Assembly: GCA_021158055.1 (NCBI GenBank)
Contig: JAGGVJ010000011.1
Coordinates: forward strand, 1 to 29,641
DNA length: 29,641 nt
DNA from: Candidatus Iainarchaeum sp.
Lineage (GTDB): Archaea > Iainarchaeota > Iainarchaeia > JAGGVJ01
Direction: 5' to 3'
The position numbers were made by a program, and so were the translations under genes. Below, piece by piece: positions 25,963 to 29,595 of this stretch. Position 1 is the first letter of the stretch. Each line of letters starts with the position of its first letter. The notes under the pieces were generated by a model. It was not told the DNA's origin, searched no databases, and saw only the letters and a program-made list of their open reading frames with translations.

Positions 25963-27186
25963 GTGCACAGAAAAACCGCAAGAATACTCATCTTTTCAGC
26001 TTTGAACGCAGTCATCATTCTTCTGGCAGACATTTTCTGGTTCAACATGGAATACTTTGAACTAATGATATTTGCAGGGATAGTCATAACAATCGCTCCG
26101 GCGGCAATAGTGAATTTTCACCACTCTTCAGTAATTAAAAAAAGAGAAAAAGAATTCCCAAAAGTATTAAGCGACTTATCCCACTCGCTTGAAACCGAAA
26201 TGACCATCACCCAAGCAGTGGAGCTGGTAAGTAAAAGTGATTTCGGCGAGCTTGACCCGCAAATAGAGCGTTTGAAATACCGATTAACTGAAATGCACAT
26301 GCCTTTTAACCAGGCATTTGAAATTTTTGGAAAAGAAACAGAAAGCACTGAAATCAAGCAGTCAATCAAGGCAATTATCGGTGCGTACAACGACGGCGGA
26401 AACCTAAAAAAAGTTTTCGCTTCCATTTCAGAAAGTTCAAGGCAACTGACTACCCTGAAACTAAAACGCGAAAACAGGGCTTACACCCACATCCTTGTCG
26501 CTTACGTGATTTTTTTTATTTTCCTTGCAATAGTAATCGGTTTGACAGTTACATTTGCGGCGCTGACTAAAACAGACATGGACATTAACTTTGAAACCCA
26601 CGTAGGAAACCTGATTCCAGAAGAGTTTTCAATGCTTTTGTCAGAATCAGGCCAGACAATAAAACTATTCAAAGAAACAGGAATAGAACAAAAAATAACA
26701 GCCATCGTGAACAAAACACTTGAACCCGGCGAACCGGTGCCAAAAGGGCACAACAAAGATGACTTCCTGTTCATATTTGTCTCCCCGGACAAAGACCTGT
26801 CAATCCTTGACAAAGTGGAATACGCAGGAACAGACTACGAAATAACCGAACTTGTCGGGGCTTTAAAAGACGCTGACGGGGAAATGGTTTACTTAAAATA
26901 CGCGCTGAAAAAAACCAGGGAAGAAATACAACAAAGCCTGCTTAAAGAAAACGAAGAAATGCTCATGGGCGACATAGACAATGCATTCGGTGGTTTTTCA
27001 GACTTTCAGTACTTGTTTTTCGGCTTGAACATCATTATCGGAATATTCCTCGGCCTCTTCATCGGTGAAATAAACGAGGGAAGCTTCATTCTCGGCTTGA
27101 AACACAGCGCGATATTTGTCACCACCACAATAATCGCATTCTCATCAATTGACCTGGTCACTGAATTAATCGTGGGACTTATCTGA
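25963..27186 (+). CDS. TadC/FlaJ family platform protein 2 with a large inserted loop domain
   Basis: EKEFPKVLSDL, DFGEL, MPFNQAF, DGGNL, TM, about 145-aa soluble insert, GLFIGEINEGSFILGLKHS; GTG start with SD GAGGTG. Confidence 0.88.
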   Translation: MHRKTARILIFSALNAVIILLADIFWFNMEYFELMIFAGIVITIAPAAIVNFHHSSVIKKREKEFPKVLSDLSHSLETEMTITQAVELVSKSDFGELDPQIERLKYRLTEMHMPFNQAFEIFGKETESTEIKQSIKAIIGAYNDGGNLKKVFASISESSRQLTTLKLKRENRAYTHILVAYVIFFIFLAIVIGLTVTFAALTKTDMDINFETHVGNLIPEEFSMLLSESGQTIKLFKETGIEQKITAIVNKTLEPGEPVPKGHNKDDFLFIFVSPDKDLSILDKVEYAGTDYEITELVGALKDADGEMVYLKYALKKTREEIQQSLLKENEEMLMGDIDNAFGGFSDFQYLFFGLNIIIGIFLGLFIGEINEGSFILGLKHSAIFVTTTIIAFSSIDLVTELIVGLI

Positions 27187-27440
27187 TTTTATCCCTTGCA
27201 TGGGTAAAACAATTATCTGACAGCACTTGACAGATTGCTGCAACATAAATACACGCGCACAACCCCCGTAACACAACCCACTGCTGCACAAGCCACTGTA
27301 ACACAAAACTGCATGGCTTACGCTAAAGCCAATAGCCTTCAGATAAACAGGAAAAACCATTAAACAGTAAACAAATCAAAAACAGTGCTAAAAACAAAAA
27401 AAATGCACAAAAAAGCATAAAGAAAAAGTTAAAAAATAAG

Positions 27441-27565
27441 TGTTTGGCAACGTCATGAAGTTCCCGCTTGCTCACGCAAAGCAGTACAATTCAAATCGCT
27501 GATGAACTTAACTTCTGAGTTCGAGACGAGTTCAGGTGTTGCTCCAACGCTATGATCGCCAAACA
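27441..27565 (-). rRNA. rrf: 5S ribosomal RNA (stand-alone)
   Basis: Reverse complement UGUUUGGCGAUCAUAGCG...ACACCUGAACUCGUCUCGAACUCAGAAGUUAAG...GUACUG...GGGAAC...GCCAAACA; terminal helix UGUUUGGC/GCCAAACA; about 125 nt; T-tracts downstream. Confidence 0.93.
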
Positions 27566-27586
27566 TACCTAATACGGCATTACTCG

Positions 27587-27594
27587 TATTTAAA
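27587..27594 (-). promoter_or_regulatory. TATA box (TTTAAATA) of the 5S rRNA gene
   Basis: Consensus box 22-29 nt upstream of the 5S 5' end. Confidence 0.75.
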
Positions 27595-27611
27595 GATTAC
27601 TTGCCAAAAAT

Positions 27612-27884
27612 TCATTTCTTCAGACTCTTGATAATCTCAAGGGTTTTTTTCAGGGCCCTTTCAACATCCGCTTCGCACCTTGCACCAGTGCAAATTATTT
27701 TACCGTTTTTGAAAAGCAAAAGAGAGCTTTTTGGATCAGTAAGCTTTAGAATCAGACCTGGAAACTGTTCCGGTTCGTATTCTGCATTATCAATGCCTGT
27801 CGCAATACCATAAAGGTCAAGTTCCATTCCGAGAGAAGCACTGGCAACAATGTTCACTATAGTGTAATCTATCTTATCCGTCAT
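27612..27884 (-). CDS. tbp: Single-repeat (half-length) TATA-box-binding protein
   Basis: NIVASA.LG.ELDL, EYEPEQFPGL, PKSSLLLFKNGKIICTGA make up one full TBP repeat; 90 aa; ATG with SD GGGGGA and a clean stop. Confidence 0.9.
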   Translation of the reverse strand: MTDKIDYTIVNIVASASLGMELDLYGIATGIDNAEYEPEQFPGLILKLTDPKSSLLLFKNGKIICTGARCEADVERALKKTLEIIKSLKK

Positions 27885-27989
27885 TTAATTCCCCCTTAAA
27901 AAACCATATAAACTATATTTCCCTTTTCTGTCATATAAACCATAAAAGACACATGAGAAAATAGTTTTTAAAAAAGTATTATTTATGGG

Positions 27990-28053
27990 CTATTTATATA
28001 GACCACTATTTATATAGACCACTATTTATATAAACTGTAATCTATTTAAATAC
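27990..28053. repeat. Tandem 16-bp repeats each containing a TATA box
   Basis: CTATTTATATAGACCA x2 (27990-28021), CTATTTATATAAACTG (28022-28037), variant CTATTTAAATAC (28042-28053). Confidence 0.9.
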
Positions 28054-28375
28054 TTCTTTTTAAACAAAGCCTAAAAACATGGAAAAATGTTTAAAGAAGA
28101 AAAGAATACAAATCCAAAAGGAAAAGAAAACCGCAGCAAAAACAAAAATAAAAAACAATTAAATCAAAAATAAAGAAACACAAAAACAACGCCCTTAAAA
28201 AACAGGACCAGCTGTAATGACACATAGTTTAATTATATTTAAATAGATGACCGCGCATAATCTTATGGGGAATGCATTGACTAATAATCAAAAAAAAACT
28301 TGAATTAGAGTCATCTGTTCAAAAAAATGAAACAAAAAATTAAGACGATTTAATGATACTTATTGAGGTGAAAAA

Positions 28376-28663
28376 ATGCCTAAATCAAACGGACCAAGAT
28401 GCAAAACAAGAAACAAATTCAAAAGAGACACAAGGCAGGTAAAACCGACTCCGAACAGCATGTTGAAAGAACTTGCCCCAAACACAAAAGTCAACATACA
28501 CGTTGAATCAAGCGTTCACAGCGGAATGCCTTTCAGGAGATTTATCGGGAAAACAGGGACAATCATGAGCAAAAGAGGCTCCTGCTACCTTGTGAAATTC
28601 AAGGACTCAAACGCTGAAAAAACCATTATAGTGCATCCGGCACATCTCAAAATACAAGGGTGA
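28376..28663 (+). CDS. rpl21e: 50S ribosomal protein eL21
   Basis: SNGPRCKTR, SVHSGMPFRRFIGKTG, IVHPAHL; SD GAGGTG. Confidence 0.96.
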   Translation: MPKSNGPRCKTRNKFKRDTRQVKPTPNSMLKELAPNTKVNIHVESSVHSGMPFRRFIGKTGTIMSKRGSCYLVKFKDSNAEKTIIVHPAHLKIQG

Positions 28664-28667
28664 AATC

Positions 28668-29021
28668 ATGATCGGAAAAAAAATTACTGAATTCAAATAC
28701 ATAACAATCCCTGAAGCAAAAAAAGTGCTTGACAAAAGAGCAAAAATAGGGGAACTCGGATACGAGCAAAGGCTTGCAAGAGAATACCTAACGGAATTTT
28801 CAAGAATAAATGAAAAAGACGCAAAAAAACTCGCTGAAAAATTAAAAAAAACAGAAAAACTCTCGGAAATCGCAGTAGTGAAAATTATTGATCTGCTGCC
28901 TAAAGACGAAGACGAACTCAGGGTAATCCTTCAAAAAGAACGGTACTCGCTTGAAAAAACCGAAGTTGAAGCAGTACTTTCAGCAGTCAAAGACACACTT
29001 GGCGCAAAAGCAGAAAATTAA
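28668..29021 (+). CDS. rpo4: RNA polymerase subunit Rpo4 (F)
   Basis: YITIPEAK, LGYEQ, VKIIDLLP...DELR; conserved position after rpl21e. Confidence 0.93.
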   Translation: MIGKKITEFKYITIPEAKKVLDKRAKIGELGYEQRLAREYLTEFSRINEKDAKKLAEKLKKTEKLSEIAVVKIIDLLPKDEDELRVILQKERYSLEKTEVEAVLSAVKDTLGAKAEN

Positions 29022-29040
29022 AAATGGAAAAGAATTAAAA

Positions 29041-29595
29041 ATGGAACAAAAAATGGAAGAGTATGCAATCGTAATCGATTACATGCCTGAAGGCCGACCG
29101 CTTGACTACAAGCACGAACCAGTAGTGCAAGCAGTGGGAACCGAATACTTCACCACCCTGGAACTGATTCCAAAAAAAGACATCAAGCTTACGATAAACG
29201 AACAGATTTACATCGGAAAAGACGAACGGGAAAAAATCCAGTACATAAAAGGCAGGATAAACTACGACCAGTTAACCAACAACGCGAAATCAGAACTGCC
29301 GGTTATCCTGAAAAAACTTGTTCTGGAACAGGAAGACAAATTCGTGGACTTCATGAACAAATCAGGCTCGCTTACACTGAGAAAACACCAGCTTGAACTG
29401 ATTCCCGGAGTCGGGAAAAAACACATGCTTCAAATACTTAATGAACGGGAAAAAAAACCCTTTAAAGACTTCAAAGACATCATGGAACGGATAAGCCTCA
29501 TGCCTGACCCTCAAAAAATATTTCCGGACAGGATAATTGAAGAGCTGATGGGCAACACAAAATACCACTTGTTCACAAGACCGAAAAAAAGATAA
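29041..29595 (+). CDS. DUF655 family putative RNA-binding protein
   Basis: EEYAIVIDY, QAVG..YFTTLEL, YIGKDEREKI, HQLELIPGVGKK; conserved rpl21e-rpo4-DUF655 order. Start ATG 29041 or 29053. Confidence 0.92.
   Translation: MEQKMEEYAIVIDYMPEGRPLDYKHEPVVQAVGTEYFTTLELIPKKDIKLTINEQIYIGKDEREKIQYIKGRINYDQLTNNAKSELPVILKKLVLEQEDKFVDFMNKSGSLTLRKHQLELIPGVGKKHMLQILNEREKKPFKDFKDIMERISLMPDPQKIFPDRIIEELMGNTKYHLFTRPKKR

Follow-up and report, generated by a model that had tools for sequence, protein, structure and literature searches.

In archaea and eukaryotes a TATA-binding protein (TBP) is necessary for the initiation of transcription, and its core of about 180 residues is built from two fused repeats. The saddle shape of the molecule has long been explained by the fusion of a one-repeat ancestor that functioned as a homodimer. 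What, then, is to be made of a TBP gene that encodes one repeat only? Such a gene lies in the stretch of DNA considered here, a contig of 29,641 nucleotides from Candidatus Iainarchaeum sp. (GenBank assembly GCA_021158055.1, contig JAGGVJ010000011.1). The stretch is referred to as the window, its coordinates are used throughout, and the genome to which it belongs is designated G000. A preliminary description, made from the sequence alone, had offered three possibilities, namely a homodimeric TBP with two docking stirrups for transcription factor B (TFB), one half of a split TBP, or a regulatory paralog or decoy. The first of these provides the best fit because no second repeat was found in the 94.9%-complete genome, the gene occupies the canonical TBP locus, it is under purifying selection, it belongs to a family of sole single-repeat TBPs, and its product can be modelled as a dimer. 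We thus consider it likely that the sole TBP of this organism is a single repeat that acts as an exactly symmetric homodimer, with the direction of transcription set by TFB and the B recognition element (BRE). The split TBP is left only in the form of an unassembled paralog, and the decoy would need a canonical TBP in the missing ~5% of the genome.

The Pfam profile for the TBP repeat, PF00352, finds a single stretch in the 90-residue protein, from residue 6 to residue 87, which corresponds to profile positions 1 to 84 of 85. The match has an E-value of 3.9e-29 and a score of 100.8 bits against a gathering cut-off of 22.9, and places the protein within the TBP repeat family. The frame measured from stop to stop is likewise 90 residues long. 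A TAA at 27885-27887 (reverse strand) directly abuts the ATG, and the frame therefore cannot extend upstream; the gene ends with a TGA, readthrough of which would add just four codons before a TAA is reached. With a GGGGG ahead of the ATG, the view that the gene constitutes exactly one repeat with a Shine-Dalgarno sequence, a start and a stop of its own was borne out. Two tandem repeats in ~180 residues, the hallmark of a canonical TBP, are not contained in this closed frame, and all ten of the NCBIfam models for full-length TBPs match by one half only (65.8 to 93.3 bits against cut-offs of 181 to 347).

All of the residues singled out in the preliminary description are found in the protein, including the Asn of VNIV (N11), the Thr of CTGA (T66), the Phe residues of QFPG (F41) and LLLF (F58), and the acidic segment EYEPEQ (residues 35 to 40). 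By analogy with other TBPs, N11 and T66 would contact the minor groove, F41 and F58 would kink the DNA, and EYEPEQ would form the acidic stirrup that binds TFB. In alignments to solved structures these columns match both repeats of M. jannaschii TBP and the second repeat of P. woesei TBP, and the EYEPEQFPG stirrup, as printed in those alignments, is identical in the window protein and in all three of these repeats. The window protein matches M. jannaschii TBP (2z8u) with an E-value of 1.2e-45, scoring 77.1 bits with repeat 1 and 78.1 bits with repeat 2; the corresponding scores for P. woesei TBP are 67.6 and 71.4 bits. As judged from these alignment scores, both TBP halves are equally matched by the window protein. 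The identity is ~50% to each repeat of the solved archaeal TBPs, and 45-53% to the 2z8u, 1pcz and 1ais chains in fold matches. An AlphaFold2 model of the protein has a mean predicted local distance difference test score (pLDDT) of 78.5 and the element order S1-H1-S2-S3-S4-S5-H2 of a TBP repeat. Its top 44 fold matches (E <= 0.001) are TBP chains without exception. The best of these, 2z8u_A, superimposes with a root-mean-square deviation of 1.1 Å over 76 columns and a template modelling (TM) score of 0.80 when scaled to the length of the query and of 0.43 when scaled to that of the target, which is to say that the model corresponds to half a TBP.

The G000 assembly comprises 1,147,527 bases in 45 contigs and is 94.93% complete and 0.05% contaminated. 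PF00352 has one match in it, which is the window gene. No second TBP repeat was found anywhere in the assembly by tblastn with the window protein or by a hidden Markov model (HMM) built from the single-repeat family and applied to 25,889 six-frame pieces. The next-best tblastn match genome-wide (E 0.13) is a stretch of 33 residues on contig C9. The next-best HMM match (E 0.18), a frame on contig C45, was considered as a second repeat and rejected, for it is an M29 peptidase. On the contig of the window the next matches have E-values of 42 and 44 (tblastn) and 22 (HMM), and the earlier statement that no remnant of a second repeat accompanies the gene thus holds for all six frames of the whole assembly, in which only the window open reading frame (ORF) was returned.

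The genome carries one TFB of 302 residues, with a zinc ribbon and two TFIIB repeats. Within the 120 nucleotides upstream of 878 crude gene calls, TTTATATA was seen 26 times where 3.2 were expected, and the count of TTTAAATA was 30 against an expectation of 4.6, an enrichment of 6-8 fold for these TATA-like 8-mers. The motif TTTAWATA occurs 69 times in the forward direction versus 47 times as its reverse complement. Flanking 42 of the forward boxes is an A/G-rich segment 3-7 nucleotides upstream (A 47-66%, T 4% at -7), a pattern that the downstream side does not display.

The preliminary description had proposed that PF00352 repeats be counted in the genome and in its relatives, and the count yielded, apart from the one match in G000, both a class dominated by two-repeat genes and a family of single-repeat ones. 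Among the 40 closest genomes, all of which are merely of the same class, 38 have an open frame of 184-333 residues that holds two repeat matches side by side, and a PF00352 match is missing from the other two. The whole class comprises 215 genomes with G000 counted in; a match occurs in 200 of them, two or more in 195, and the four other genomes with a single match are cut by contig ends. Of the 411 matches in this tally 150 were listed individually, and the architecture was checked directly in 31 class loci. The gene order DUF655-RpoF-L21e, followed by the divergent TBP gene and then 5S ribosomal RNA (rRNA), is common to the two-repeat loci of the class and to single-repeat loci, and 5S-like DNA follows the two-repeat TBP gene in class relatives L032, L108, L113, L120 and L122. 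On account of this shared order, the one-repeat gene of G000 stands exactly where the class has its two-repeat gene. The window protein is 40-62% identical to the N repeats of the class (median 56) and 42-58% identical to the C repeats (median 54). As a separate observation, 14 of the 40 relatives have, beside the normal two-repeat TBP, a frame of 94-155 residues with one weak match to PF00352 (E 1.1e-7 to 5.6e-4), for example G032:C1:531657-531857 and G037:C3:15861-16061; none is present in G000. These probably represent the divergent monopartite family described in PMC3597702.

Single-repeat TBPs are found well beyond this window. A search of 1.84 billion protein representatives gave 5,595 matches at E <= 0.001, in a ranking by summed score that favours two-repeat proteins. 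Among proteins of 49-158 residues there are many complete ones of 89-134 residues that are 61-70% identical to the window protein, and some of the single-repeat genes lie on contigs of 0.69 and 1.08 Mb. One representative, at 183 residues, has a basic tail of ~95 residues, such that the complete single-repeat proteins range from 89 to 183 residues. In an alignment of 24 of them, 38 columns are invariant, including N11, F41, F58, T66 and EYEPEQFPG. A scan of species genomes matched at least 600 stretches, of which 596 were confirmed. The best 80 of these loci were analysed, and consist of 10 with a complete single-repeat ORF and 70 with a two-repeat gene (one frameshifted, one cut by a contig end). 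Eight of the single-repeat ORFs were scanned with PF00352, and each contains one stretch only. Whole-genome searches found a two-repeat TBP in none of the 10 genomes with a complete single-repeat gene; six of the 10 hold one such gene and four hold two, unlinked. The window protein is 49-69% identical to the single-repeat proteins of other genomes. The family, termed S-type, was delimited in this analysis by one PF00352 repeat, an identity of 60-70% and the absence of a two-repeat TBP from the genome, all of which apply to the window gene, and it has no published definition.

The architecture is also frequent in a Micrarchaeia-like class, that of G043, in which 384 of 401 sampled genomes have a TBP match. 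By a hand count, 137 of the 384 show exactly one repeat match. This match sits in an open frame of 92-168 residues for at least 80 of the 137 genomes, and always so among the matches listed. The 150 matches listed, which were ranked by E-value and are thus not a fair sample, fall into 120 in frames of 92-168 residues and 30 in frames of 185-312 residues; a few of the short frames are near the end of a contig and could be truncated. The tally takes in the unpublished genomes G519 and G313. At least 80, and perhaps 137, of the 384 genomes would thus have a single-repeat gene as their sole TBP, and from these sequence comparisons the single-repeat TBP appears to be a widespread architecture in DPANN archaea.

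Several side features of these proteins may be recorded here. In many single-repeat TBPs (P0213, P0077, P0114, P0065 and others) the N or C terminus is extended by a Lys/Arg-rich tail of 30-95 residues that resembles a histone tail; the window protein has no tail. In G258 three single-repeat genes lie on contig C1 (~1 Mb), near 448, 894 and 1,045 kb, and G258, G270, G276, G322 and G334 each contain two or three single-repeat genes with no two-repeat gene among their matches. Two other TBP-like proteins have more repeats than usual: P0125 contains three in 272 residues, the first two nearly identical, and the eukaryote-like P0126 contains four in 376 residues, with the pair repeated. These may be genuine additional duplications, or else artefacts of assembly or gene models.

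A model of two copies of the window protein gave values of 0.64, 0.63 and 0.64 for the interface score ipSAE, versus 0.01 for the best control. Of 30 proteins whose solved structures are pairs of one chain, 20 attained the mark applied to this score, versus 1 among 23 whose solved structures are single chains, a calibration that holds just roughly with the alignment used here. The partner has a pLDDT of 87 or higher, and no fewer than 94% of contacts agree between runs. The modelled interface is formed by residues 3-18 together with 63, 65, 71, 74-75, 78-79 and 82, with residue 12 of one chain against residue 12 of the other, and is best described as a predicted antiparallel S1-S1' pairing backed by H2. 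The S1 and S1' strands are the central strands of the canonical TBP saddle, and because of this the two-chain model would rebuild that saddle.

The following mechanism can be envisaged. Two identical chains would pair in an antiparallel fashion via their S1 strands, with H2 behind, and thereby form the ten-stranded saddle that canonical TBP makes from two fused repeats. The resulting homodimer would be exactly, rather than approximately, two-fold symmetric, and would bind TTTAWATA-type boxes upstream of G000 genes. As it would present two identical EYEPEQFPG stirrups, a single TFB could dock at either end, and a purine-rich BRE beside the box, read by TFB, would fix the direction of transcription. 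According to the available portion of PMC2602779, the TATA box of M. jannaschii is nearly symmetrical, and orientation is supplied by the BRE; on that basis a symmetric TBP would need no new mechanism.

There are points that weigh against this proposal. The support for a homodimer is computational throughout, and the dimer model may owe its score to the occurrence of the same packing inside solved TBP chains. Crude gene calls and 42 sites underlie the analysis of promoters and BRE. G000 is an exception in its own class, where all other TBPs that were seen in full have two repeats. Given that ~5% of the genome is missing and that the assembly is in 45 contigs, a second TBP gene may have escaped assembly. 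Finally, two unlinked single-repeat genes are carried by each of four genomes that have some of the TBPs most similar to that of the window (63-69% identity). These are G041 (L101/L013), G042 (L102/L014), G044 (L018/L103) and G046 (L033/L104). Within each genome the two genes are 56-72% identical, and they represent either a natural two-gene TBP or two homodimers. The copies L101, L102 and L018 are positioned at the L21e-RpoF-DUF655 locus, L033 of the same set is on a 1.2-kb contig, and the partner copies are elsewhere.

These four genomes, out of the 10 with single-repeat genes, give substance to a rather unlikely alternative, in which the window gene encodes one half of a two-gene TBP. Its partner, an unlinked single-repeat paralog in the unassembled part of a genome that is 94.9% complete, would join it in a heterodimer or in a mixture of homo- and heterodimers. 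In the repeat trees discussed below the paralogs form two sets, and the window protein groups (87/93) with the set whose members are not at the L21e locus. The window gene, however, is located at the syntenic L21e locus, the home of the other set, and because of this conflict and the 90 columns of the tree, the grouping constitutes weak evidence. In addition, no second repeat emerged in G000 at any threshold, and genomes with one gene are so numerous (six of the 10, and the 137 of 384 counted by hand in the Micrarchaeia-like class) that incompleteness alone does not explain them. The predicted homodimer, moreover, passes its controls.

A different question is how a one-repeat gene came to stand at a two-repeat locus. 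Trees of individual repeats, which rest on about 95 columns, cluster the N and C repeats of these DPANN groups with the single-repeat proteins (starred supports of 98, 97 and, in a careful tree of 81 rows, 100/98), apart from a clade in which the repeats of Thermoplasmatota, Woesearchaeota-labelled and other archaea, N and C alike, are found. Separation of all N from all C repeats, the textbook hypothesis, costs 46.6 log-likelihood units and is rejected (p-AU 0.017), albeit in a test made after the tree had been seen. The repeat of the window is contained in no starred clade and nests in neither class clade. A careful tree of three neighbouring proteins has two clades (99/98, starred). The basal polytomy of one of these contains the window along with three single-repeat genomes and two families of the two-repeat type; in the other, single-repeat lineages stand in a basal polytomy. 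Repeat number changes three times on this tree (2-4 times in bootstraps), and the direction of change cannot be read from it. A test for a recombinant with an N head and a C tail against class repeats had four diagnostic columns only, which read N, C, N, N along the chain.

The two repeats of one protein are 37-73% identical over all loci, the top nine values (64-73%) belonging to Micrarchaeota-labelled proteins and those of the outgroup lying between 37 and 55%. At the DNA level, an exact word of at least 31 nucleotides is shared by the two repeats of the same gene in 21 of 100 distinct two-repeat genes, and in 25 of the 100 the shared word exceeds in length that of every one of 200 synonymous-codon resamplings. 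The longest such words measure 89, 80, 55 and 47 nucleotides, with L041, L040, L028 and L006 among the loci concerned. Shared tracts of this type suggest gene conversion between the halves of an essential gene. They are also a hazard for the short-read assembly of TBP genes in these lineages. Note that at L028 (3959-4661) the second repeat of a two-repeat TBP is spread over two overlapping frames, owing to a frameshift or a sequencing error.

Two readings would fit the trees. One is that a one-repeat gene was duplicated several times, the other is concerted evolution, and it is the latter that the sequences support directly, inasmuch as the repeats share exact DNA tracts. Unequal recombination between near-identical tracts could remove exactly one repeat in frame and leave a one-repeat gene. 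An old, secondary loss of one repeat in the G000 lineage is therefore viewed as more likely than a relic from before the duplication. According to the opposing scenario, single-repeat TBPs would be the surviving state from before the fusion, a Micrarchaeia/Iainarchaeia-like (or older) ancestor would have had a homodimeric TBP, and two-repeat TBPs would have arisen more than once by tandem duplication and fusion. This would explain the lineage-wise grouping of N and C repeats, the rejection of the N-versus-C tree and the single-repeat lineages in basal polytomies. It is nevertheless unlikely, for gene conversion explains the same trees more simply.

Could the window protein be a regulatory paralog or decoy, comparable to haloarchaeal TbpA, beside a canonical TBP that the assembly missed? 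Single-domain TBP paralogs do accompany full TBPs in Halobacteria, as outlined in the accessible text of PMC3597702, and ~5% of the G000 genome is missing. Such a role is very unlikely, since the gene occupies the locus where relatives keep their canonical TBP, a two-repeat TBP is present in none of the 10 genomes with a single-repeat gene, and the DNA-contact and stirrup residues are invariant across 24 family members.

The preliminary description had also allowed for the possibility that a two-repeat gene had been collapsed in assembly, which could occur through a stretch common to both repeats. The worry is real in this group, where the shared words of 31-89 nucleotides in 21 of 100 two-repeat relatives could make a short-read assembler skip one unit in frame; yet unbroken contigs through the one-repeat gene argue against it here, and a collapse is highly improbable. 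Logan contigs are built with 31-letter words and hence would break at shared stretches that long. Two of them run without a break through the gene: one from run X1 (11,921 nucleotides), which covers all of 26900-28700 with three base differences and one inserted C after 27920, and one from run X2 (27,978 nucleotides). These do not constitute independent support, because X1 and X2 may be the source sample. A third contig, of run X3 from another study (1,390 nucleotides), covers 27398-28700 with 58 differences, is ~93% identical and has the same layout of 5S rRNA, one-repeat gene and L21e, with three nucleotides missing in frame at 27616. The 90%-identity cluster of the window protein contains its own 90-residue form and four 89-residue forms from other assemblies. 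One of the latter, from a contig of 1,390 nucleotides that is presumably X3, differs by I31V and the absence of the last Lys.

All eight of the substitutions listed inside the ORF of the X3 contig fall on third codon positions, 53 further differences over a 1,801-base stretch lying outside the listing. As judged from these codon positions, the TBP gene is under purifying selection. The preliminary description had named the combination of a full TBP at this locus in close relatives with relaxed selection on the window copy as a case that would overturn its proposal; two-repeat genes do stand at this locus in the class, and selection on the window copy is purifying rather than relaxed. Since other contigs keep the one-repeat gene and the listed differences are at third positions, the gene is not the product of an assembly collapse, nor is it a decaying remnant. 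Accordingly, although DPANN genomes are in general reduced and many are host-dependent, the notion that the gene is a relic in an organism that does not use TBP, or borrows that of its host, can hardly be right in view of the intact frame with its Shine-Dalgarno sequence and TATA-like box, third-position differences accompanied by one conservative residue change, 38 invariant columns in the family, and the retention of TFB and TATA-rich promoters.

The features of the locus are collected in Table 1. Upstream of the TBP gene, the two TTTATATG motifs sit 21-28 and 48-55 nucleotides before the ATG and are candidate TATA boxes of the gene, to which a promoter role may be ascribed from their position. 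The array of 16-nucleotide units, which begins at 27990, lies in the spacer that separates the divergent TBP and L21e genes. Exactly one unit is lacking there in the X3 relative, and the copy number of the unit thus varies. The array might be a stack of TBP sites, conceivably for autoregulation. Together with the TTTAAATA box 24 nucleotides before the 5S rRNA gene, it agrees with the earlier account of the flanks as a TATA-like array and a 5S gene with an upstream box. One additional C past intergenic position 27920 is present in the X1, X2 and X3 contigs alike, and the window for this reason probably has a 1-nucleotide deletion error at that point. A scan for sigma-70 promoters and terminators, which does not cover archaeal promoters, found sites no more frequently than in shuffled sequences. 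For the DUF655 protein, the true start is probably later than the listed TTG because the Pfam match begins at residue 35. The 407-residue protein with a T2SSF domain is likely, from its domain content, to be a pilus or archaellum platform protein.

Table 1. Features of the single-repeat TBP locus in the window
Feature	Position	Strand	Remarks
Single-repeat TBP (S-type) gene, 90 aa, complete	27612..27884	-	ATG-started ORF with one PF00352 stretch
Modelled elements of the 90-aa protein (residues)	E6-17, H24-30, E34-36, E43-49, E52-58, E62-66, H71-89		AlphaFold2 model
Shine-Dalgarno-like GGGGG	27891..27895	-	6 nt ahead of ATG; sequence reading
Two copies of 13-nt unit (direct repeat D2), each with TTTATATG	27905..27944 (27905-27917, 27932-27944)	-	Candidate TATA boxes
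Tandem array of three 16-nt units (CTATTTATATAGACCA; third degenerate), family D1	27990..28037	.	Spacing 16 and 16; TATA-like core in each
TTTAAATA box, in 48-nt spacer past the TBP stop codon	27587..27594	-	Ends 24 nt ahead of 5S 5' end; sequence reading
5S rRNA gene, directly downstream of TBP gene	27442..27563	-	RF00001, 84.3 bits, model positions 1-120 of 120
Membrane protein, 407 aa, T2SSF domain	25963..27186	+	PF00482, E 8.6e-12; end ~255 nt from 5S 3' end
Ribosomal protein L21e, divergent from TBP gene	28376..28663	+	PF01157, E 9.4e-27; conserved TBP neighbour in relatives
RNA polymerase subunit Rpo4/F (Rpb4 family; RpoF)	28668..29021	+	PF03874, E 1.2e-11; conserved neighbour in relatives
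DUF655 protein	28951..29595	+	PF04919, E 1.1e-61; conserved neighbour in relatives; listed TTG start overlaps rpoF

A one-repeat TBP thus seems to serve as an organism's sole TBP, and likewise in many DPANN species. If so, these are natural proteins with which to examine the binding of TATA DNA by a symmetric dimer, the setting of direction by TFB and BRE alone, and what was later gained from asymmetry. The gene-conversion tracts suggest that the number of repeats in an essential factor is still changing. There is also a practical side, in that annotation pipelines call such genes "TBP" or "hypothetical protein" and leave the missing half unremarked, and marker-based checks may count them as fragments.

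In the open-access literature no report of a sole single-repeat TBP was found, although supplements, which were outside the search, could list such genes. Two DPANN genomics papers merely list TBP as present, and no passage on a single-repeat or homodimeric TBP was found in PMC7221094. In the part of PMC12917281 (2026) that is available, the one-repeat ancestor of TBP is still a hypothetical monopartite prototype. The 2013 survey in PMC3597702, within its available sections, describes single TBP domains solely as additional proteins in species that also have a full TBP, with no evidence for great antiquity.

With respect to known systems, the most distant comparison is that with the TBP-like N-domains of RNase HIII and DNA glycosylases, which have the same helix-grip, half-saddle fold at a distance and are parts of enzymes. 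The RNase HIII structures 3asm and 2d0a are weak fold matches to the window model (E 0.33-0.37, TM 0.40), with no sequence match. Closer are the divergent monopartite TBP-domain proteins of Thermococcales and other Euryarchaeota, which, as given in Table 3 of PMC3597702, are about 91-96 residues long, occur beside normal TBPs and are distantly related to them. The window protein resembles them in its size, its single domain and its own gene, but differs in its E-value of 1.2e-45 with M. jannaschii TBP and its ~50% identity to TBP repeats. Haloarchaeal TbpA, in the excerpted description of the same survey, is a single TBP domain close to TBP that is not essential and is found beside full-length TBPs. 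When compared by that description only, it is like the window protein a free-standing single domain near real TBPs; the window gene, in contrast, is from a DPANN lineage, lies at the canonical TBP locus and has no other TBP found in its genome.

The closest relationship is with canonical archaeal TBP, as observed in M. jannaschii (2z8u), P. woesei (1pcz and 1ais) and S. acidocaldarius (1mp9). The repeat family, the fold, the conserved residues and the stirrup are the same, as are the locus, which is that of the two-repeat TBP of the class, and the TFB partner in the genome. The difference lies in the number of repeats per chain, which is one, in 90 residues, for the window protein. A saddle constructed from it would need two chains, and would therefore be exactly symmetric with two identical stirrups.

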